From a virus, in the IMG/VR virus record IMGVR_UViG_3300027969_000058, positions 50,736 to 114,735 of that record: 64,000 nucleotides of DNA. One strand, written 5' to 3'. Every line of letters begins with the position of its first letter. The stretch's first letter is position 1. Position numbers and translations under genes: made by a program. Of the stretch, positions 17,156 through 63,200 are shown one piece after another. Below the pieces are notes generated by a model. It saw only the letters and a list, made by a program, of their open reading frames with translations, was not told where the DNA came from and made no database searches.

Positions 17156-17868
17156 TTGTGTTCTCCAAGGCTCAGTGCCTTATCTTGTAATTTATATAAG
17201 TGCTGTTGTAATTGTCCAATAAAGCCTTTAGCACGTAACACTTTAAATGCTACATTCTCTACACTGAACTCACCACCTTGTTCTAATCCTGACTGACGCA
17301 ATTTTTTAATTTCTTGTTGCACTTCTTTAGCTTCTTCAAAACTATCAGTAGTAAGTGCCTGCATTATTTTATTTAAGTAATTCTCAACTTTTGCAGTAAC
17401 GTCGCTGTCGCTGATTTTAATAGTGCTCATAGTTGGTTCACTAAGCCACTTGTTGTCAAGTATACTGTAGACTCCAAGACTGTGATGCTCTTGACTATCT
17501 GGTTGTACATATAACTCTACGTCAATGCCTTTGATTTTAATATCGTGTATATGATTATACTGATTTTTCTTTGCATCGTAAAGCGGTTTGAGTAATAGCT
17601 CTCGTTCAGCGGGTACTGTAACTATTAAGTGTAAATCTAAATCGCTTTGTGGAGTGTAGGAATATGCTGCGTTGGATCCTGATATTGTAACATCTTTGAG
17701 CAATAGTTCAGGGATATCTATGAATTCGATAAAATGTTTTGCTATTTGTAATAGCTTATATCTTATCTGGGGATGTAGTATACTACCTTGCCATAAGAGA
17801 GGATTCAGTTCTTTATGAAATTGAACAGCTGAGTCGACTATGCCTTCTGTGAATTCTCTTATATACAT
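17152..17868 (-). CDS. Pol-beta-superfamily nucleotidyltransferase
   Basis: ISGSNAAYSYTPQSDLDLHL (GS...DxD), VELYVQ; MYIREFTE N-terminus. Confidence 0.8.
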   Translation of the reverse strand: MYIREFTEGIVDSAVQFHKELNPLLWQGSILHPQIRYKLLQIAKHFIEFIDIPELLLKDVTISGSNAAYSYTPQSDLDLHLIVTVPAERELLLKPLYDAKKNQYNHIHDIKIKGIDVELYVQPDSQEHHSLGVYSILDNKWLSEPTMSTIKISDSDVTAKVENYLNKIMQALTTDSFEEAKEVQQEIKKLRQSGLEQGGEFSVENVAFKVLRAKGFIGQLQQHLYKLQDKALSLGEHK

Positions 17869-46642: not shown

Positions 46643-47151
46643 GTAAGGTACTCCAGCCACTCTTGATAACGAACTTGGTAAGGCAATCGTTTACGTTTGT
46701 TAACCAGTTCATAGAACTCTGGCTTATAAGGTTTGTACTTAGGTTTATATTTGGTACTTGCACCTTTGTTTGCATTGCATGTGCCGCAGGCTGTAACACA
46801 GTTTTCAAAGCTGGTCTTGCCGCCTTTGCTCACAGGCATAACGTGGTCAAGAGTACATTCTTTTTTCTGCAACACCTTTTCGCAGTACAAGCAAGTGTAC
46901 AAGTCTCGAAGGTATACATTGCTTCTTGAGAATCGAACGTTGCTTTTAGTCTTCATATATTCTTTTAATATGATAACACTGGGAACCTTAGTTTCCCATA
47001 CTGCACTATGTACAATCCATTCTTCGTGCCATGTAAGTACGTGGCACTTTTCAAGTACCATATACTTTATAGCTTCTTGCCAATCAATAGTAGAAACTGG
47101 CAGAAAGCTAACTGGTGCTCCGTCGGCATTGAGTACGAGCGTGTCTGACAT
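46639..47151 (-). CDS. HNH endonuclease
   Basis: LVLNAD, RDLYTCLYC, TLDHVMPVSKGG, CGTCNANK. Confidence 0.9.
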   Translation of the reverse strand: MSDTLVLNADGAPVSFLPVSTIDWQEAIKYMVLEKCHVLTWHEEWIVHSAVWETKVPSVIILKEYMKTKSNVRFSRSNVYLRDLYTCLYCEKVLQKKECTLDHVMPVSKGGKTSFENCVTACGTCNANKGASTKYKPKYKPYKPEFYELVNKRKRLPYQVRYQEWLEYLT

Positions 47152-47181
47152 GTTAGATTTCCGTGTTAGGTTGAATACTAT

Positions 47182-47210
47182 ATTATATAGTAAAATTGCT
47201 ACTTGAACAA
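47182..47210 (-). promoter_or_regulatory. sigma70-like promoter
   Basis: TTGTTC-N17-TATAAT. Confidence 0.55.
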
Positions 47211-47224
47211 GCAGTTTTGGTGTG

Positions 47225-47773
47225 TTAAGCTAATATAGATCGAGCAAACTCGTTGCCAGAATGATCGATAGCTTTAGTCCATTGGCTTTGATTATCGAGA
47301 TCAAACACTAAATCTTGATCTGCTGTGGCCACTAACCAACTATGGTTATGTTTAAACGGTGGGTTACCTTGTATCTCATTCTCGAGTTGACCGGGAGTCC
47401 ACCCACACAATCCTACAAACAATCTCCATCGAGCAGGACAGTTGCCCATGGCTAAGTTTGTTAGTATATCTGCACTTGAACTAATAGAAAACGTATCATT
47501 AATTCTCATAGTGTTACTACACTTCCATTCGGCGCTGTGCAACATAGTAAATGCTTTAACATTTACAGGGCCACCAATATGTACAAATCCCGCAACATCT
47601 AAACTTACATTATGTTGTAGTGCAAACTCTTTAATAGTCATTTGACTGCGTTTATTCAACACAAGACCCACAGCGCCTTTGGTATGCTGCTCTGTTAGAA
47701 AAATTGTAGATTTTTCCCAGAAGTTACCTCTTACACTTGGAGGCGCAATGATTAAGTTACCTGTAAAATTCAT
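47225..47773 (-). CDS. yqgE: YqgE/AlgH (UPF0301) protein
   Basis: LIIAPP, GAVGLVLNK, GGPV, G..GWTPGQLENEI, SWL. Confidence 0.9.
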   Translation of the reverse strand: MNFTGNLIIAPPSVRGNFWEKSTIFLTEQHTKGAVGLVLNKRSQMTIKEFALQHNVSLDVAGFVHIGGPVNVKAFTMLHSAEWKCSNTMRINDTFSISSSADILTNLAMGNCPARWRLFVGLCGWTPGQLENEIQGNPPFKHNHSWLVATADQDLVFDLDNQSQWTKAIDHSGNEFARSILA

Positions 47774-49188
47774 TATGCAAATATCGTTCCGCCGACTTGC
47801 TGGCCGCCGGCTGCTTTAAGTTTATGTAAGTATCCAATGTTGGTACCAGGACCATAAGCTGCCGGATTGGCAGCAGTGAATCGTTGAATATCCTTTGGAG
47901 CATTAGGTAAGTGCTCTTTGATACCAGTTAGTATCGAAGTTAACTGTCGTTGTGTTGGGCCTCGAGTAAAATTAGGACTGGCTGCATGTCCGTCGGCACT
48001 GGTTCCAGTAACTGCTTGGAATTGGTTAGGAGCCATTAGCACACTGACAACACTGTTGCCCCACTTACCGGATCTCGTTCTATTTAAGATAACTGCCATG
48101 ACCAGGGCCTGCTCTTCTGAGTTGTTACTTGCTTCTGCAGAAACTGCTCTTAATAGGTAGTTCCATTCTTTCTCGTCCATGTCTCTACCTAAGAACTTGT
48201 CGGCAGTTGCTTTGCCTTCTTTGACTGTTTCGTCTGATGCTAATGCGGCTAAGTCGGCAGCGCCTTTACTATAGTCTGTGCTCTTAACATCCTTGTCTGT
48301 ACTCTTAGTAATTGTAATACCTTTAGTAGCAATCAATTTATTAAGTGCGGCTACAGTTTCTGTGCCCGGATCACCATCTACAGTAAGACTATTTGCCTGT
48401 TGGAATGCTTTAACAGCCTCAACAGTTTCAGGGCCACGTATCCCATCTGGACCATGCTTTGGTAATTTATATCCTAACGCTATCAATGCCTGCTGAACAT
48501 CACGCACAGCAGGGCCTCTACGTCCGGTCGGAACATCAAGGGTGGGTGCAGAAGGCGAGCCGCCTTGGCCTGCTTTGTCTTTGGTGCGAGGTGCGCCTGG
48601 TGCGCCTGTACTGTTTCCTAAGGAAACACCGCTACCAGATTGAGCTGTAACTTTATTGGCTACTTCTTTATAAACAGCCATAGTGGCATGCACGCCATCT
48701 GTTAATGGCTTGCCGTCGATATCGATAATAGGAACATCGATTGCACCTTTGATAGCATTGCGAACTTCTTCTTGATAATCGCCGCCGTAGTATTGAGCAA
48801 GGCCTGCGCCACTGCCTGGGCCATTAGGAAATAGCATAAAATATACTTTGGCGGGCTGTTGTGCTTGAACTTTAGCAACTACATTGGCCACGTTAGATGC
48901 AATAGTAGCTGCCGGAACTGGCTTACGCTGTCCTTTACTATCTATAACTGATCTCGATGCATTAGCAGTGTCGTTGGCACCCTGAGAAACTACTACAATC
49001 GCGCCTGCTGGTAGCTTACTGATATTAGCCAGCATTTGACTGTCTGTACTACTGCGGCCACCGATAGCTAAGTTAACCCAATCTTTGCCTCCAGCGTGTG
49101 CGATAGCCACTGCATGGCTATCGCCTATCGTATAGAATTTTGGGGTTTCACCAGCTTCTTTTACAATTTTAAATTCGTTGAATCTCAT
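47773..49188 (-). CDS. SGNH esterase + PG-binding + SleB-like hydrolase fusion
   Basis: IGDSH, GAND, DGVH; VRDVQQAL..LGY..DGIRG; VSAEA, VILNR, APNQFQAV; start MRFNEF at ATGA overlap. Confidence 0.85.
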   Translation of the reverse strand: MRFNEFKIVKEAGETPKFYTIGDSHAVAIAHAGGKDWVNLAIGGRSSTDSQMLANISKLPAGAIVVVSQGANDTANASRSVIDSKGQRKPVPAATIASNVANVVAKVQAQQPAKVYFMLFPNGPGSGAGLAQYYGGDYQEEVRNAIKGAIDVPIIDIDGKPLTDGVHATMAVYKEVANKVTAQSGSGVSLGNSTGAPGAPRTKDKAGQGGSPSAPTLDVPTGRRGPAVRDVQQALIALGYKLPKHGPDGIRGPETVEAVKAFQQANSLTVDGDPGTETVAALNKLIATKGITITKSTDKDVKSTDYSKGAADLAALASDETVKEGKATADKFLGRDMDEKEWNYLLRAVSAEASNNSEEQALVMAVILNRTRSGKWGNSVVSVLMAPNQFQAVTGTSADGHAASPNFTRGPTQRQLTSILTGIKEHLPNAPKDIQRFTAANPAAYGPGTNIGYLHKLKAAGGQQVGGTIFA

Positions 49189-54761: not shown

Positions 54762-55000
54762 TTGCGTAGTCCTTTGATATCTTTATATTTGACACGAATA
54801 ATAGTGTGCCATTCTTTACCAATCTTCATAGGCAAGTCCAGACTGACACTGACCATAGGCCCTTCTGGCTCATTACGCATATTGTCTGTATAGGCAGTGC
54901 CCACAAAAGGTATCTTCATATATGTGCCTTCAACCCTATCGCCAAACTTGTATTTGGGCTTAGGTCGATTGGCTTCAAAGTATTCAGCAAGACTTGCCAT
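54758..55000 (-). CDS. Small SH3/KOW-like protein
   Basis: YKFGDRVEG..IPFVG..LDLP. Confidence 0.65.
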   Translation of the reverse strand: MASLAEYFEANRPKPKYKFGDRVEGTYMKIPFVGTAYTDNMRNEPEGPMVSVSLDLPMKIGKEWHTIIRVKYKDIKGLRK

Positions 55001-55221
55001 TAGATAACCCTGCCTAATCCTAACCAGATAAGTTGTTCAAGCTCAGTTTGATAGTCCTGTCCTAATCTACGTTTTTCGTAAATAGTCTGCAGGATCTCTT
55101 TGCCATCGCTGAAGCTGCCTGTGCCTGCACCGCGGCTTTCTAATTCTTCAATCAGGTCGTCTGTATCAAACTCTGATAAGTCAACATCTACCTCTACCTC
55201 GGTGTAAATTGTTTTATACAT
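55000..55221 (-). CDS. Small acidic protein
   Basis: VDVDLSEFDTDDLIEELESRG. Confidence 0.7.
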   Translation of the reverse strand: MYKTIYTEVEVDVDLSEFDTDDLIEELESRGAGTGSFSDGKEILQTIYEKRRLGQDYQTELEQLIWLGLGRVI

Positions 55222-55672
55222 TATGTTCCTTTGTTAGTTCTACTACAAATAAAAACTTCTCATAAGCCTTGCGAACGATTGGGTTAGCCAATAGTTTGTC
55301 TGCTTCTTCTTGCATAGCTTTAACTCCTGCTTCGGCACAGTCGTGTACACTCAACCCGTGTAATGTACACAGGTCGTCACCAAACTCTTTGGCTAACTTT
55401 TCCCAAGCTCGCTTCTGCCCTACTGTGATAGGAGTACTCTTTGGACGCAGTTCGCTGGCTTTTGATATAGCCCGACAAATAGCATCTTCAGCTACACGGC
55501 CTGCGGCAATCATGGCAGCATAGTCAGGGTCGATGTTATAGCGAGTACTTTTACCGCCAGGGTAGCTCATGACCAAATGTGTGCCTTTGGTAAAGCTGTC
55601 AAGGAAATTGTTGTCGTACTCGCTCACAGGCACATACTTGCGGCCTATCTTTTCGTAGTAAATCTTTTTCAT
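55214..55672 (-). CDS. Hypothetical protein
   Basis: MKKIYYEKIGRKYVPV...NPIVRKAYEKF. Confidence 0.7.
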   Translation of the reverse strand: MKKIYYEKIGRKYVPVSEYDNNFLDSFTKGTHLVMSYPGGKSTRYNIDPDYAAMIAAGRVAEDAICRAISKASELRPKSTPITVGQKRAWEKLAKEFGDDLCTLHGLSVHDCAEAGVKAMQEEADKLLANPIVRKAYEKFLFVVELTKEHNV

Positions 55673-55682
55673 TGTACGAATC

Positions 55683-56453
55683 TCAAAATTGTTTATCAAC
55701 AATATGATTATACATGATATCTTTAACTTTGTCAAACCTTTCTTGTTTATTCTTTGCGCCAAGAATAACTATGTAAAAGATTTGGCTATTCTGTTCAACT
55801 ACTAAACCAACACACCAACCGGCCGGATTTGTAAATCCAGTTTTGGTAACAACAATATTGTCAAATTCAAATAACACCGGTGCATTGGTGTTTGGCAATA
55901 CTATCTTTCGAATTTGTTTTTTAGCCTGAGTTTCAAATATTGCCTGTTTCTTAATACTGGTTGCTCGAATAAACTCGTTCTCTGAACTGGCTTTGAGTAG
56001 TTTAGCAACATCTCGAGCAGTACTTACATTGAACACACTTAGTCCCGAAGGATCAATAAACTTAGTGTCAGTCATACCAAGTAGGTGAGCTTTTTGATTC
56101 ATTGCTTTTAGAAAGCCTACGCGACCATTTGGGTAGTCTTCTGCTAATGTTTCAGCGGCTGCATTGTCACTGCGAACTAACATAGCAGTTAATAATTCTT
56201 CACGTGTATAACGATTTCTTGGTAATAGACTTCCAAACCTACTATGCAATGGTAACAGTGCATAGGGCGCATTACCGCTGTCCAATGCAACAAGGGCAGT
56301 CATTAACTTAGTAAGGCTGGCAAAAGGTCGCACCCGATCAGGCGCCTGTGCAATTATAGTTTTATTAGTAGTTTGATTAAACAACAAGATGCTGGGCTCG
56401 GTGGCCCAGCATGTGTTCGATACAACGATAATAACTGCCGCTATAAATCGCAT
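55683..56453 (-). CDS. Peptidase S11 D-Ala-D-Ala endo/carboxypeptidase (PBP7-like)
   Basis: ASLTK (SxxK), SDN, KTG; signal peptide. Confidence 0.9.
   Translation of the reverse strand: MRFIAAVIIVVSNTCWATEPSILLFNQTTNKTIIAQAPDRVRPFASLTKLMTALVALDSGNAPYALLPLHSRFGSLLPRNRYTREELLTAMLVRSDNAAAETLAEDYPNGRVGFLKAMNQKAHLLGMTDTKFIDPSGLSVFNVSTARDVAKLLKASSENEFIRATSIKKQAIFETQAKKQIRKIVLPNTNAPVLFEFDNIVVTKTGFTNPAGWCVGLVVEQNSQIFYIVILGAKNKQERFDKVKDIMYNHIVDKQF
55707..55735 (-). promoter_or_regulatory. Consensus sigma70 promoter in 3' end of S11 gene
   Basis: TTGACA-N17-TATAAT. Confidence 0.85.
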
Positions 56454-56465
56454 ACATCGACAATA

Positions 56466-57026
56466 TTACAACTGAGTTTCTTTCCACCGATCTGCACGGG
56501 CACGTGAGCCTTCTGGATCAATGTGATACTCATCAATAGCATGACGTAACGCTTGTTCTACAAACTGATTAAAAGTTATATCTTTTTCATGTGCCATTTT
56601 CATATATTGAAGGAGCTCATGATCCGGGATATCAATTGGTAAACTTACACGAGTATCATAGTCTTCACCTTCTTTAATGGCCAAACACTTTTGGAAGAAG
56701 TCATCGTCGACTTCTAAATCTATATAGTCTACTTCGTCCCACGCTTGGTCTTTGTTGATGCCACGATGGTCAGCTTCATCCTGCATGTCTGCACTGAAGT
56801 CTGAATTGATCATTCGGTATGCACGGTTGTGTACATAGTCATGTGCTTGAACTTCGTAGACTGTTTGATTGTCAGTATCAAAAATAATACTAAAACTATA
56901 TCCGTCTTGCTCTCCATTCCAACTGTCCAATTGATAGACATCGGTGCCATAACATTGCCAGCCGTAATTGCTGCCTTCTGTAATGCGATAATCTACAAGT
57001 TCCATCCATTCTTTAATAGTGATCAT
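56466..57026 (-). CDS. Acidic hypothetical protein, C-terminal HicB/RHH-like end
   Basis: YRITEGS..W..YG; AHEKDITFNQFVEQAL. Confidence 0.65.
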   Translation of the reverse strand: MITIKEWMELVDYRITEGSNYGWQCYGTDVYQLDSWNGEQDGYSFSIIFDTDNQTVYEVQAHDYVHNRAYRMINSDFSADMQDEADHRGINKDQAWDEVDYIDLEVDDDFFQKCLAIKEGEDYDTRVSLPIDIPDHELLQYMKMAHEKDITFNQFVEQALRHAIDEYHIDPEGSRARADRWKETQL

Positions 57027-57346
57027 TTTATAACTTCCTTTGATTTGTGGGTAACGAAAACTGACTTGCCTTTTTCTCTAATTAAGTCTGCTAACTCTTG
57101 CGGACTGTCCTTACTGTACTCGATTACAGTTTCTATATCAACACTGCTCCAAAAGGTCCATATCTCTGGGAACCTTTGCGGGTTTGCTTTGGCCCGCATG
57201 ATCAATGCTCCTATGGGGAACTTACTCGTTGCGGGCTTGTCTGTTAGGGCGGCCCACATTGCTTTTTTATCTAACTCTGTGAGATCAACTACACACTCAA
57301 AGCCCAGAGTATCAAAATAGGCAAGTAATAGATTATCCTGTTGCAT
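57023..57346 (-). CDS. Hypothetical protein
   Basis: FDTLGFECVVD...RAKANPQR..EIW. Confidence 0.7.
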   Translation of the reverse strand: MQQDNLLLAYFDTLGFECVVDLTELDKKAMWAALTDKPATSKFPIGALIMRAKANPQRFPEIWTFWSSVDIETVIEYSKDSPQELADLIREKGKSVFVTHKSKEVIK

Positions 57347-57348
57347 AA

Positions 57349-58023
57349 TTAACCTTGTACTGTTACGGCCTGTTCAAATAGCCATTCGTCGTTAAGTGTA
57401 GCATCGCTGATAAACTCTGGATTGTGTACGAAACAACGATCCTTCTTAGACTCGTAAGTGATTACCAAAGTCTTGTCAGTGTCTGCATGATTACGCACAT
57501 GATGCTTCTTAACTGAGTCTGCTGGTTTAACCTGTACAGGATAGTCTCCAATCCAAGCATCAATGCCCTGTGTTTCTTCTTCGGCTGTACTCCAACGATG
57601 TTCAAGGTCAAAGTATTTGGCCACTGCCAGTACACTGTGATACTCACCGCTCATGCCATAATGGGTTTTGTTAATTACCAAGTCTGTGATGTAGGCTTCG
57701 GCAACTGCTTTGGTGAACACAGTTCTATCTAACGGCATCTTTGACAGCATGTCCCAGAGCTTGTCTGCGGCACTGGCTATCTTTGCTTGTCCTTTATGCT
57801 GAGTAAAGTAGAACTCCTGCCATGCTTCAACAGAATGTCCTGTTGTCTGCTTTGTGGCTAAAAACTCTGTAAACAGCTCTTTCATACTGCCCACAGTCTT
57901 TACCTGTGTGGCTTTGCTGTTTTGAGTAGCAATGTTCAACACAGGCTTTGAGTACTTAGGAAAGTCAAAGTCACTGTTGCGTTTAGTCAACGATTGAAAG
58001 TGTTTGGCAGTAAGTGTTAGCAT
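57349..58023 (-). CDS. MjaI-family restriction endonuclease-like protein
   Basis: FPKYS..LNIATQNSKAT...VGSMKELF; EEETQGIDAWIGDYPVQVKP (PD...QxK-type core). Confidence 0.7.
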   Translation of the reverse strand: MLTLTAKHFQSLTKRNSDFDFPKYSKPVLNIATQNSKATQVKTVGSMKELFTEFLATKQTTGHSVEAWQEFYFTQHKGQAKIASAADKLWDMLSKMPLDRTVFTKAVAEAYITDLVINKTHYGMSGEYHSVLAVAKYFDLEHRWSTAEEETQGIDAWIGDYPVQVKPADSVKKHHVRNHADTDKTLVITYESKKDRCFVHNPEFISDATLNDEWLFEQAVTVQG

Positions 58024-59453: not shown

Positions 59454-60041
59454 TTAATGGCGTGTTATGCCCAGAGTGATTCTGCCCGGTGTTCGACCGT
59501 GCTCTTTAACAAACTGATTGCCTTTGTAAGCATGACAGCACTTGCAGAGGGTTTGAAAATTGCTGGGCTTATCGTTACTGGGGTTTTCATCTATGTGATC
59601 CACATCTAACATACCGCTCCAAGCTATGGTAGTGGTACATACAAAACCCAGTCTGCCGTCCTGATTCTCGCAATGGTCTTTGCGATATTGCCGATAAGGA
59701 TGTCGACTGTTAACATAGTCAGCATGGGAGGTGAATCCTGCTTTGTGTGCCACTACGTCGTCGATGTTTCTAATCCAATCTGCGCCTGTTTTCTCTGCGT
59801 AGCGTTTGGCTGTGCGCTGATGATGACACTGACTGCAGACTGTTCTATACACAGGCTCTCCTGAAGTCCAGTGCCAATCCTGTACCGCTCGTTCGTTTGA
59901 ACAGCCTTCTTCAGAGCAACGGGGGTGAACCATACTGCTATAAACCCTGTGTGGCTTCCTGGGTGTGCCCTGTGCAAGAGCAATTTCTCGGGCTGTGTTG
60001 TGCCCAAATTGATTGAGTTCTCTAATAGTATAGCGAGCCAT
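59454..60041 (-). CDS. HNH endonuclease with Zn-binding motifs
   Basis: CSQCH, LDVDHIDENPSN..SNFQTLCKCCH. Confidence 0.85.
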   Translation of the reverse strand: MARYTIRELNQFGHNTAREIALAQGTPRKPHRVYSSMVHPRCSEEGCSNERAVQDWHWTSGEPVYRTVCSQCHHQRTAKRYAEKTGADWIRNIDDVVAHKAGFTSHADYVNSRHPYRQYRKDHCENQDGRLGFVCTTTIAWSGMLDVDHIDENPSNDKPSNFQTLCKCCHAYKGNQFVKEHGRTPGRITLGITRH

Positions 60042-60071
60042 AAAGTCCCTTTGTGTGTTAGTGTAGTGTTT

Positions 60072-60109
60072 ATTATAACAGTTATCCCGAACTCAGTCAA
60101 CTATAAATA
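60072..60109. promoter_or_regulatory. Divergent promoters: sigma70 (minus) and TATAAATA (plus)
   Basis: TTGACT-N17-TATAAT at 60100-60072; TATAAATA at 60102-60109. Confidence 0.75.
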
Positions 60110-60150
60110 ACCCATATGACAACCAAAATTAACCCGATATTCAAAACAAC

Positions 60151-61005
60151 ATGATACATGCTTTTGGCTGCAGTTTTACACGCTATCAATGGCCCACATG
60201 GGCAGACTTACTCAATCAAATAGAACCCTGTGTTAACTACGGCAGCCCGGGCACGGGCAACAAGGCCATATATACCCGAATGGCCAATGCTCTGTTCACG
60301 GGTAAGATCACACAGGGAGTAGATCGAGTTATCATACAGTGGACAGGCCATACACGCTATGATCTTTGGCTGGGTCCAAAACAGTGGCAGCAGTTGGGCA
60401 ATGTGTGGAATCAAACAGGAGACAGCCCTGTGACCAGTGCGTTTCTACAGCATTTGTGGAGTGACCAAGACGCACTGATACAGACTCTGATATTGGTACA
60501 GTCAGCGGCTCTGCTACTTAACTATCACAAAATAGCCTATCACTTTGTGTTTATGAATAACCTGCGCAGTTTCACTTTGGAAACGGGTAATCACAGCCTT
60601 GGACCCTATCCTGATCTCTTAGATCCACACTGGCAGAACTTTGACAAGTTAAATCGCAGTGAACTCAGCATGACAGACTGGGTCAAGCAGAGCAGAAAAA
60701 CACGGAAACCCTGTTTGTGGCAGTGGGACAAACACCGTCCTGCAAGCGATGATCTACACCCAGAACCCTGGGAAGCCTACACTTATGCAAAGAAAGAGTT
60801 GGGCTCTGTGCTGAGATGGCAACCTGAGCAATGGCAGCAACTGGCCACTATAGCAGAGCAATGTCAACAGGAACTACGGGAGTACAATGCTGAGAATCCT
60901 CAGTGCTTGATGTACGTAAACAAGAATAACCTTAACTACTATCCCGGAGCTCCTATATATAAAGAAGGTCATATCAAATATCTACGTGATCAAGAGCTGA
61001 TCTAA
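60151..61005 (+). CDS. SGNH-hydrolase-like protein
   Basis: FGCSFT, NYGSPGTGN, IIQWT..R, DLHP. Confidence 0.7.
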   Translation: MIHAFGCSFTRYQWPTWADLLNQIEPCVNYGSPGTGNKAIYTRMANALFTGKITQGVDRVIIQWTGHTRYDLWLGPKQWQQLGNVWNQTGDSPVTSAFLQHLWSDQDALIQTLILVQSAALLLNYHKIAYHFVFMNNLRSFTLETGNHSLGPYPDLLDPHWQNFDKLNRSELSMTDWVKQSRKTRKPCLWQWDKHRPASDDLHPEPWEAYTYAKKELGSVLRWQPEQWQQLATIAEQCQQELREYNAENPQCLMYVNKNNLNYYPGAPIYKEGHIKYLRDQELI

Positions 61006-61205
61006 AACACAGTTAGATAATCCGCATAACATAACAGCAGCCAAGTAATGTGCTTATTGGGCTCTGCTTCAATACGCCAACACCAATATGAATCTCCTAC
61101 ATGTATATAGGGACCGGGATACATCACTATGTCATTGAGTTGACAATAGCGATAGATGCTGTCAATAACGGGACTGTGGCTGTCAAGAGTAACGCATATA
61201 CGCAT
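61002..61205 (-). CDS. Small protein, possible distant FxLRW paralog
   Basis: MRICVTL...ITWLLLCY; TAAATA at 61214-61219. Confidence 0.55.
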   Translation of the reverse strand: MRICVTLDSHSPVIDSIYRYCQLNDIVMYPGPYIHVGDSYWCWRIEAEPNKHITWLLLCYADYLTVF

Positions 61206-61243
61206 AGTATGATTATTTACTGTATATACAGCATATTGAGCAT

Positions 61244-61326
61244 AGGCCCCGCTGTGTGTATATAGACTACAGTAGAGCAAGGCCCCGCTGCGCGGTCTGC
61301 ACAGTTTGGGCCCACAGGCCCCGCTG
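61244..61326 (+). repeat. Three 11-bp direct repeats with exact 36-bp period
   Basis: AGGCCCCGCTG at 61244, 61280, 61316. Confidence 0.9.
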
Positions 61327-61610
61327 CGAGTGTCCGTAGCCACGAAGTGGACAGCGCAAAAAAGTTTTTTAGGTGGCCCCTGATAGAGTATTCACTGTAT
61401 ATACAGTATAGAACCAGAGTGGCGCCAGGATTGAGAGGGGATTACTATAAGCGTGTGTGTTTTTTTGGCTGTGTTGTGCGGGGTTTTAAGATGGGTTTTG
61501 ACTATTTGAACTATGCCTCTCTGCCCCAGCCGTCTCAAAAATTTTTTACTCTAAGCCACGCCATCCTGATCTTATGATTTGACTCTAAATCAAGGATTCG
61601 TTGCACAATT

Positions 61611-61731
61611 TTGCACTTTGTCACACTTTTCCACAGAATCTTGACTCATCAACCGCACTCGTTCACGCTACAGCGTAGGCCATGGGATCTAAATTGCACT
61701 TTTGGCCATTCTACTTGCACTTTGTCACACT
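61611..61731 (+). repeat. 17-bp direct repeat with partial copies
   Basis: TTGCACTTTGTCACACT at 61611 and 61715; TTGCAC also at 61601 and 61694. Confidence 0.85.
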
Positions 61732-61837
61732 GTGTCTAATATAGTAGACATTGCCGTCACTGTGTATGGTATACTGTACATTCACGGCGGTCTCTGTGCT
61801 TGGTCTGCTATATACAGTATATGGACCGGGAGTCATA

Positions 61838-62062
61838 ATGATCAATAACCTTGCACACATCCGCTATGGTCAACACAGTGTACACTTAGCTAAGAACACT
61901 GAGACTGGCAGTATAGTCTGTTTTAAGTATAATGATCGACGCTGTGACTTACGTGTATTTGACCGAGACCAAAGTGATCAATGTGCTGAGTACATGCTAC
62001 AGTCAATACCTGCTTTTGGATGGGGTTTTGTTGAGGATTCCGAAGCAGAAAACACAGAATAG
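61838..62062 (+). CDS. Hypothetical protein (74 aa)
   Basis: GGAG RBS before ATG 61838. Confidence 0.55.
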   Translation: MINNLAHIRYGQHSVHLAKNTETGSIVCFKYNDRRCDLRVFDRDQSDQCAEYMLQSIPAFGWGFVEDSEAENTE

Positions 62063-62109
62063 GGGCCGGCGGTAATACTATCGTTTGCAATTTTTTCGGC
62101 TGTTTTCTA

Positions 62110-62240
62110 TGTGGATAACTCTGTGGATAACTTTTCGCTGTTGTTTTTTCGCCACAGTGGATAACCTGTGGATAAGTTCTGAGATTTAAAGTTATCCACA
62201 GCCAAAATGTTGTCCACAGGTTATACATCAGTTATCCACA
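62110..62240. promoter_or_regulatory. DnaA-box cluster
   Basis: Perfect TTATCCACA/TGTGGATAA at 62110, 62122, 62167, 62192, 62232; one mismatch at 62156, 62210. Confidence 0.88.
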
Positions 62241-62294
62241 GCTGAAAACACAGGCGCTGTCGCCGTCCACCCCCACCTTGTTCGAACAGTCTTT

Positions 62295-62323
62295 ATTATA
62301 CTGTCTTTTGGGCGAACCGTCAA
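62295..62323 (-). promoter_or_regulatory. sigma70 promoter firing toward the DnaA boxes
   Basis: TTGACG-N17-TATAAT. Confidence 0.8.
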
Positions 62324-62370
62324 CCGATTCAGAGAGACCCTACACAGAGAGTGTGTTCTTTTAGCCACAG

Positions 62371-62399
62371 TTGACGAAAGTGTGTTTTGGCTGTAAAAT
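62371..62399 (+). promoter_or_regulatory. sigma70 early promoter
   Basis: TTGACG-N17-TAAAAT. Confidence 0.75.
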
Positions 62400-62421
62400 T
62401 AGGGCTTAAAACAAGGAAACT

Positions 62422-62571
62422 ATGTACGCAATCGTTAACATTAATACTAAAGCTATTAACTATTATACAACCGAAAATGCCGCTTCAGAAGCGTGTCGCG
62501 TATACAATGTATTACCGGGCCATAAAGTTTATATTATAGACTTTACATTATCATTAATCGAACAGTTATAA
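62422..62571 (+). CDS. 49-aa early protein
   Basis: MYAIVNINTKAINYY...; AAGGA RBS. Confidence 0.65.
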   Translation: MYAIVNINTKAINYYTTENAASEACRVYNVLPGHKVYIIDFTLSLIEQL

Positions 62572-62787: not shown

Positions 62788-62816
62788 TTGACGTTTTGGG
62801 CCCGTAGTGCTATAAT
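62788..62816 (+). promoter_or_regulatory. sigma70 early promoter
   Basis: TTGACG-N17-TATAAT with extended TG. Confidence 0.85.
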
Positions 62817-62839: not shown

Positions 62840-63163
62840 ATGACAAGACGTACACCCAGATCAGATTGCAACTACATCATCTACGCTATGACCAGCGAGC
62901 GGGGTGATTCGTACATTGGCTTGACACGTAAGGCTTTGCCAAACGCAGACAAGGTTGTAGCAGAGCGTTGGCGCAAGCACAAGAGCCGTGCTCGTAACGA
63001 GAACCGCTTGTGGGCCTTGTACATCTACTTGAAGAGCGGCGGGCTTGACATGAACTGGACACACGAGATCATTGCCATTGTGCGTGGTCGTGCTGAAGCT
63101 TATGCTTACGAGCGTGAGCTGGTCAAGTTGATCAAGCCCGAATTGAACGATCAGTACTTATAA
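62840..63163 (+). CDS. GIY-YIG nuclease-family protein
   Basis: IIY...YIGLT, RWRKH, ERELV, PELN. Confidence 0.8.
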   Translation: MTRRTPRSDCNYIIYAMTSERGDSYIGLTRKALPNADKVVAERWRKHKSRARNENRLWALYIYLKSGGLDMNWTHEIIAIVRGRAEAYAYERELVKLIKPELNDQYL

Positions 63164-63171
63164 CCCTACGG

Positions 63172-63200
63172 TTGACTGGGTTATAGGTTTCTGCTATAAT
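63172..63200 (+). promoter_or_regulatory. sigma70 early promoter
   Basis: TTGACT-N17-TATAAT with extended TG. Confidence 0.85.

Follow-up and report, generated by a model that had tools for sequence, protein, structure and literature searches.

A phased array of DnaA boxes as an optional module of a predicted short leftward early unit in T4-like jumbo phages

Introduction

T4-type phages are the textbook example of replication that ignores the host initiator, and T4 itself replicates independently of DnaA. To our knowledge, origins outside T4 itself are essentially unmapped among T4-type phages. Phage and plasmid DNA with DnaA boxes has been described for lambda, P1, T5, and ColE1-type plasmids. 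In E. coli, the Messer and Drabble laboratories reportedly described transcription blocks by DnaA on DnaA boxes at asnC-mioC and in the gua operon.

The closest described systems are found in lambda, T4, and T5-like phages. In lambda, a short antisense RNA, oop, is made next to ori-lambda from the promoter pO. Two boxes downstream of pO are protected by DnaA, and the activity of pO influences lambda replication (PMC3985674); boxes past the promoter are also a feature of lambda pR (PMC3985674 and Szalewska-Palasz/Wegrzyn papers cited therein). In T4, oriE combines an antisense primer RNA from an early promoter with evenly spaced 12-nt repeats, and oriF and oriG have a promoter, a downstream unwinding element, and an R-loop (PMC3016281). 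The iss (injection-stop) region of T5-like phages has eight boxes, in pairs 3 bp apart inside inverted repeats, within a large untranslated region at the pre-early edge (bioRxiv 10.1101/866236). Titration of DnaA by the chromosome is established in E. coli (PMC12371093).

Here we describe an array of DnaA boxes in a metagenomic virus and compare it with these systems. The window, which is the whole stretch of DNA analysed, comprises the final 64 kb of a 114,735-bp IMG/VR virus contig (CheckV completeness 33%).

Results

A family of T4-like jumbo phages

The contig carries a ribonucleotide reductase, a DnaK homologue, and large virion proteins. The dnaK (Hsp70) gene is full-length (L129:10777-12696; G000 46776-48695) and located ~2-4 kb before the window start. 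Its product is 64-68% identical to DnaK in records labelled Pseudomonas, Salmonella, Acinetobacter, and Escherichia, a similarity that hints at a proteobacterial host.

Relatives were recruited with a 93-aa early protein (65 loci) and a 186-aa protein (48 loci), and they include contigs of 320-385 kb rated as complete by CheckV. They encode a T4 Gp23-type capsid protein, a B-family DNA polymerase, and a gp41/DnaB-type helicase, which bears out the T4-type label given to this phage in an earlier note made from the sequence alone. The family is a T4-like jumbo family with genomes of ~320-385 kb and its own replisome genes, and judging by the IMG sample numbers, we take it to come largely from freshwater metagenomes. 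Neither megablast nor blastn of the region revealed a cultured relative among 50,697 phage records. The matches of a 156-bp query were confined to strings of boxes in unrelated phages, and the 284-aa neighbour gene, as a route to relatives, led only to distant kin without a nearby array.

The box array, the leftward promoter, and their surroundings

The locus has the following features, in window positions:

61838-62062, plus strand: conserved small gene of 74 aa, without Pfam or PHROG match, 29-46% identical to homologues in L151, L152, and G021
62110-62118 and 62122-62130, minus strand: DnaA-box pair 1, two perfect boxes, gap of 3 bp
62156-62164 (TTATCCACT, one mismatch, position 9) and 62167-62175 (perfect), minus strand: DnaA-box pair 2, gap of 2 bp
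62192-62200 (perfect), 62210-62218 (TTGTCCACA), and 62232-62240 (perfect), plus strand: three inverted DnaA boxes
62287-62264, minus strand: invariant leader element, made of GTTCGAAC, a spacer of 1-12 variable nt, and TGGGGRTGGACG
62323-62295, minus strand: leftward early-class sigma70 promoter from a promoter scan, TTGACG, 17 bp, TATAAT, 11 of 12 positions
62371-62399, plus strand: first of the rightward early promoters, divergent from the leftward one, TTGACG, 17 bp, TAAAAT

Within 131 bp (62110-62240) there are seven DnaA boxes, and five of these are perfect copies of TTATCCACA. The exact positions agree with the earlier description of four boxes in one orientation followed by three inverted ones. 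The three plus-strand boxes are separated by gaps of 9 and 13 bp, with start spacings of 18 and 22 bp, and TTGTCCACA has its mismatch at position 3, which is among the tolerated positions. All five perfect boxes of the window are inside the array, and the whole contig has one further. The 28 other boxes with at most one mismatch are spread across ~64 kb, corresponding to ~0.06 expected per 131 bp; seven boxes in this space are far beyond chance. Nested inverted repeats (I4 and I16) were found at the array, and as a single strand the inverted boxes form a long hairpin with the boxes in its stem (-33 kcal/mol, z = -7.1). A near-box at 62361-62369 (TTAGCCACA) is probably not a DnaA site, as suggested by its mismatch at position 4, which is never variable in arrays. 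This near-box is conserved within the upstream flank of the rightward promoter.

The spacer of the leftward promoter carries a CCAAAAG-CAG motif common to the other early promoters of the phage. Further rightward early-type promoters are found at 62788, 63172, and 63648, each promoter of the series being ahead of small genes, and the back-to-back layout recurs in G021, a complete 383-kb relative. The early promoters at 62295-62323, 62788-62816, and 63172-63200, together with L323 (G021 87018-89336), share an extended spacer motif ending in CCAAAAGGCAG directly before TATAAT, and thereby form a recognizable class, like the T4 early promoters. Downstream of the leftward promoter, no conserved ORF was found inside the array, in agreement with the earlier note, which had seen no convincing one.

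Reading towards the leftward unit, the small gene stops 48 bp short of the array. The boxes themselves had been placed at the point where coding flips from minus to plus, and this placement has to be corrected: the flip occurs at ~60,050-60,150, ~2 kb to the left. Between the flip and the boxes there are two plus-strand genes, 60151-61005 (284 aa) and the small gene, as well as an ORF-poor, repeat-rich stretch. In L151 and L152, the genes upstream of the array site are on the plus strand, therefore the strand switch is not a conserved part of the feature. The comparison of relatives indicates a mosaic early region that rearranges around the conserved leftward unit.

The ORF-poor stretch (61005-61838) contains three AGGCCCCGCTG repeats with an exact 36-bp period (61244-61328), bracketed by two CTGTATATACAG palindromes (61211-61244, 61386-61416). 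These repeats are ~780 bp from the array, several -35-type TTGCAC motifs are scattered through the stretch, and only 61069-61226 of it aligns with the relative L151. Homologues of an MjaI-family restriction endonuclease, an HNH endonuclease, and a GIY-YIG endonuclease are encoded near the control region (57349-58023, 59454-60041, and 62840-63163), and the GIY-YIG gene is retained in L152. A gene block to the left of the array (55000-57030) is inverted relative to the early genes when compared with L151:200-1900.

An invariant leader element

The leader element is ~20 bases long, has 21 invariant columns in our alignment A1, and occurs in a single copy in this contig. An exact-pattern scan retrieved it from 71 IMG/VR contigs, which reduce to 60 distinct copies, the window's included (for example L250:3760-3783 and L323:6913-6936). 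There is usually one copy per ~350-kb genome; the exceptions, with two copies each, are L305 and the 322-kb contig from which L271 and L299 derive. A sigma70-type promoter ends 7-50 nt upstream of the element in 54 of the 60 copies, so that the promoter pointing into the boxes, first noticed in the window and found here by scan, is a conserved companion of the element.

The element has no known RNA family, as a search of Rfam gave a chance-level match only, and ARAGORN found no tRNA. No convincing covarying fold was obtained for the leader or the short unit (2 of 13 pairs, covariation term -0.59 kcal/mol), and the sole five-pair stem in the leader is invariant, hence uninformative for covariation. 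Judged by eye, a small ORF was rejected, because the ATG frame differs between alleles, and so was a tRNA fragment, because the T-arm pairing fails. The leader element is probably a protein-recognition site, on either DNA or RNA.

Selection for DnaA binding

To characterize the boxes, 27 related arrays were pooled and compared with 244 kb of flanking DNA. In the arrays, perfect boxes are more numerous than boxes with one mismatch (102 vs 44), the reverse of the flanks (8 vs 76). Nearly all array mismatches (43 of 44) are at positions 1, 3, 5, or 9, and the remaining one is at position 6. Positions 2, 4, 7, and 8 have none, although they are freely mismatched in the background. This pattern agrees with the classical DnaA-box consensus TT(A/T)TNCACA (bioRxiv 10.1101/866236), with extra tolerance at both ends.

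The spacing of the boxes is equally regular. Co-oriented neighbours are separated by 2 bp (35 cases), 3 bp (13), or 13 bp (23), and therefore box starts are one or two helical turns apart, with a phasing at 11-12 and 22-23 bp in the pooled arrays. In vivo, E. coli DnaA prefers box pairs 2-3 bp apart (PMC11317965). Pair 1 of the window is retained in the relatives L133, L146, and L149, and the second box of pair 2 is invariant in a five-sequence alignment (A2).

Together, these patterns indicate that the boxes are genuine DnaA sites under selection for DnaA binding, and as far as sequence can tell, binding of DnaA to the array is near certain. The family members tested have no DnaA DNA-binding domain, and gave only sub-threshold P-loop matches; therefore, the ligand of the boxes must be the host DnaA.

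An optional array at a fixed place

Arrays were found at the same place in L133, L146, L149, L150, L151, L171, L176, and L200, and in closer relatives the identity across array and promoter is 74-76%. G021 has one array, at 86.8 kb, plus one stray box, and its order is identical: small gene, array, leader element, leftward promoter, early promoters. The presence of the same array between the same phage genes in many independent assemblies led us to reject a chimeric join with a host oriC, which the earlier note had named as a possible artefact.

The survey of related phages that had been proposed as a check thus found a shared array, but also revealed that about half of the family is box-free. 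For 56 leader copies there was enough sequence to decide: 27 have at least two boxes within 450 nt downstream, and 28 are without boxes. The 450 nt upstream of the element are box-free in 53 of the 60 copies. The complete relatives G001, G022, G025, and G026 have no array anywhere, only 0-5 scattered perfect boxes each, and therefore DnaA is not essential for replication in this T4-like family. Identical leader alleles occur both with and without arrays, which implies recent and repeated gain or loss of the array.

What stands in place of the boxes can be seen in L152, which keeps the promoter, the element, and the flanking genes, and has hairpins where the boxes would be. By one criterion, terminator-like hairpins at most 330 nt downstream are found in 14 of 29 box-free units vs 6 of 27 box-bearing ones (Fisher p = 0.054, with kinship ignored). 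The window's own unit has no intrinsic terminator; those of the relatives follow the element at a distance of 100-170 nt. The site of the hairpin of other relatives is occupied by a box pair in L277, and both L264 and L277 have boxes together with a clear terminator. The box-free unit is thus predicted to give a short RNA of ~120-170 nt, ending at intrinsic, often two-way terminators.

In L250, L251, L263, L302, L260, and L277, the terminators 100-170 nt past the element are TTGACA-loop hairpins flanked by A- and T-runs (two-way). They are often trailed by a second terminator, and a second conserved hairpin, GTTAGT...ACTAAC, lies between leader and terminator in these relatives.

Tests for an origin

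The earlier note had proposed either a host-DnaA-assisted, transcription-activated origin or a datA-like sink. What stands of this proposal includes the boxes, which are genuine and selected, and the conserved promoter that points into them; a build like that of oriC or datA is absent. By 40-bp duplex stability, the array and its flanks are at the 26th-88th percentile of the window, and no easily melted element was detected there. In duplex stability the leader element ranks within the top 1% of the window, and the least stable DNA is 190-500 bp from the array, inside two small genes missing from L133 and L146. Across 49 relatives, the 250 nt downstream melt no more easily than random stretches. 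There is no run of three or more DnaA-trios on either strand, and no GATC cluster (one GATC in 500 bp); 13-mers are not matched with fewer than three mismatches. An exact IHF site (WATCAANNNNTTR) was not found in 61950-62450, where the sole one-mismatch match overlaps a box. Scanning of the neighbour genes gave an HNH nuclease, a GIY-YIG nuclease, and genes without matches, and no Rep family that could go with iterons. Whole-genome GC skew, suggested earlier as a check, carries no origin information: in the complete G021 it declines steadily and turns only with the gene strand. The array is not a copy of oriC.

These results bear on the idea of a DnaA-assisted origin, in which the leftward transcript would provide an R-loop or primer, and DnaA on the phased boxes would help with opening or helicase loading. 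Such an origin would be transcription-primed in the manner of T4, with host boxes as an optional helper, comparable to ColE1/pBR322, P1, F, and RK2. Hairpin DnaA-box sites are the assembly place of the ABC primosome, and the inverted-box hairpin resembles such a site, yet it is not conserved, since the boxes of L171, L176, and L289 are all or nearly all co-oriented. The phasing at one and two turns resembles a DnaA oligomerisation region, and the non-coding unit is typically single-copy, with a strong early promoter. Over its initial 50 nt the RNA-like strand is rich in G in every relative (mean GC skew +0.34, without a negative value), and T4 origins are promoter-driven as well, with oriE using an early promoter (PMC3016281). 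On the other hand, none of the elements of an origin listed above was found, half of the family, complete genomes included, does without boxes, and the family has its own gp41-type helicase. We consider this kind of origin unlikely.

A broader variant is possible, if still rather doubtful, namely that the leftward unit, promoter and leader, is the primary replication start of the 320-385-kb T4-like family. The array would then be a plug-in present in about half of its members, tying the firing of this start to the host initiator. If true, a lytic T4-type virus with its own replisome would still read the replication licence of its host.

Box clusters in other phages

More than 112 unrelated viral contigs (IMG/VR loci L007-L118) contain an exact match to the 22-mer TGTGGATAACTCTGTGGATAAC, which consists of two boxes with 3 bp between them, and many of these contigs have 5-10 boxes within 250 bp. 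Kinship of these contigs with the jumbo phage was rejected, as only the boxes are shared. Among cultured lytic phages, the podophage vB_Kpn_003_Koku of Klebsiella (Gansuvirus; PV625052, ~17488-17647; L132:2950-3109) carries eight boxes, all in one orientation, in a 160-bp stretch surrounded by very small early ORFs; six of the eight are perfect. The part of the query matched by Koku is also matched by Kp7, PmP19, and further phages of Klebsiella and Proteus. In the literature on DnaA boxes in T4-like and other lytic phages, we found only the T5 preprint and passing mentions. Given the many viral contigs and the cultured Klebsiella phages, DnaA arrays in lytic phages seem to be under-described.

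The spread of clusters over unrelated viral contigs and cultured lytic phages such as Koku would suit a role in titration, whereby the multiplying phage genome soaks up host DnaA, new host rounds stop, and DnaA-controlled host genes shift. A single array with seven boxes, five of which match the high-affinity consensus perfectly, would also fit. However, titration needs no fixed place, and it gives no reason why 27 of 27 arrays are downstream of the same promoter and leader, which weakens the datA-like sink of the earlier note. Each 350-kb genome has just one array, with 6-9 sites, a single infecting genome would contribute few sites compared with the host chromosome, a datA-type IHF site is lacking, and half of the family lives without an array. 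Titration is therefore quite improbable as the main function.

Discussion

The array resembles several known systems, each in part. With oriC, datA/DARS of E. coli, and the B. subtilis clusters it shares several high-affinity boxes, helical phasing, and pairs 2-3 bp apart. Unlike these, it has no unwinding element, DnaA-trios, IHF site, GATC cluster, or dnaA/dnaN linkage, and the virus encodes no DnaA. As at asnC-mioC and gua, the boxes are in a transcribed region downstream of a sigma70 promoter, although one or two boxes are found there, compared with seven to nine in the phage arrays.

T4 belongs to the same virus class, and like its origins, the unit described here is promoter-driven, non-coding, antisense, dispensable, and variable among relatives, with evenly phased short repeats. 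The iterons of oriE, GTTGAAGGTAAT-type repeats located in gene 5, do not correspond to DnaA boxes, and 7.5 kb contain only one box with one mismatch. Like oriF and oriG, our unit has a promoter; unlike in those origins, the DNA past it starts G+C-rich, continues at average stability, and contains no unwinding element.

DnaA is largely membrane-bound, and in T5-like phages paired boxes border the pre-early genes (bioRxiv 10.1101/866236; PMC13250531). Another conceivable role, proposed for the box pairs of the T5 injection-stop region, is that DnaA would keep the stretch at the membrane or nucleoid during or just after DNA entry and so bound the first-expressed region. Our phage, a lytic one like T5, likewise has box pairs (with gaps of 3 and 2 bp) inside inverted repeats, in an ORF-poor stretch at the edge of the first-expressed, early genes. 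In T5, though, the boxes are in the terminal repeat, are linked to two-step injection, and are half degenerate. Here they are mostly perfect and tied to a promoter and leader, and the array of G021 is internal in the assembled sequence (at 86.8 kb out of 383 kb). For T5, too, the model is putative. No terminal repeat was found on the 114,735-bp contig, a 33%-complete fragment, and the array is optional in the family. Moreover, T4-type phages are circularly permuted, without a fixed entering end (PMC3016281), and a fixed stop signal makes little sense for them. We regard a role in tethering or in an entry pause as very unlikely.

The closest likeness is to pO/oop of lambda. In both, a host-sigma70 promoter has boxes downstream, an order kept in 27 of 27 arrays, and a short non-coding RNA, in our case a predicted one, runs against a neighbouring gene, here the small gene. 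In lambda, the activity of the promoter feeds phage replication control, a link that we only infer for the jumbo phage. The differences are considerable as well. Lambda has two weak consensus-like boxes instead of seven phased ones of which five are perfect, its origin and its O and P proteins are known, the leader element has no lambda counterpart, and the family is T4-like, not lambdoid.

We tentatively favour, with somewhat less than even confidence, an action of DnaA in cis on the short leftward early transcript, as at pO/oop. The array itself is best described from the sequence comparison as an optional module of a leftward early unit that is short, non-coding, and conserved, and it occupies the region of this unit predicted to be transcribed. 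On one side the unit is bordered by the conserved small gene, on the other by the start of the rightward series of early genes. The model, read from the sequence for DnaA occupancy, transcription start, transcript effect, and replication link alike, would run as follows. Host RNA polymerase would fire the promoter at 62323-62295 right after infection, and the transcript, from a putative start near 62288, would open with the leader element and reach the boxes ~48 to 178 nt downstream. DnaA dimers or oligomers would occupy the box pairs, phased by one and two helical turns. Bound DnaA could then block or modulate both the leftward transcript and the transcription converging from the small gene. 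In box-free relatives, an intrinsic, often two-way terminator would fill the place of the array. With the array, the output of the unit would be set by the host DnaA level. By analogy with lambda pO/oop, with pR, and with T4 oriE, the unit's own role would most likely be the activation or priming of phage replication.

Although the array was gained or lost repeatedly, promoter, leader, and boxes have stayed in one order, which points to such an action in cis and which a free-standing sponge would not require. Several observations weigh against the gating of the transcript. Seven to nine phased high-affinity boxes exceed the needs of a roadblock, and look more like an oligomerisation region. 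The contrast between terminators and arrays is borderline (p = 0.054), and two relatives, L264 and L277, have both. In addition, the non-coding gap may be among the few sites of a densely packed genome that tolerate an insertion, in which case the case for action in cis would be weaker.

This study provides, as new elements, a family-level picture of an optional, single, phased array, a strong DnaA-specific mismatch signature, and the fixed place of the array behind an invariant leader element. The leader element is a candidate cis-acting site, and may mark a control point or the replication start of these genomes. The array is a clonable piece for asking what host DnaA does, be it to gate a transcript, to help an origin, or to be soaked up, and a natural set of relatives with and without the array is available for comparison. 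In this family of very large T4-like phages, gain or loss of a canonical, phased DnaA array has thus occurred repeatedly, and always at a single position.
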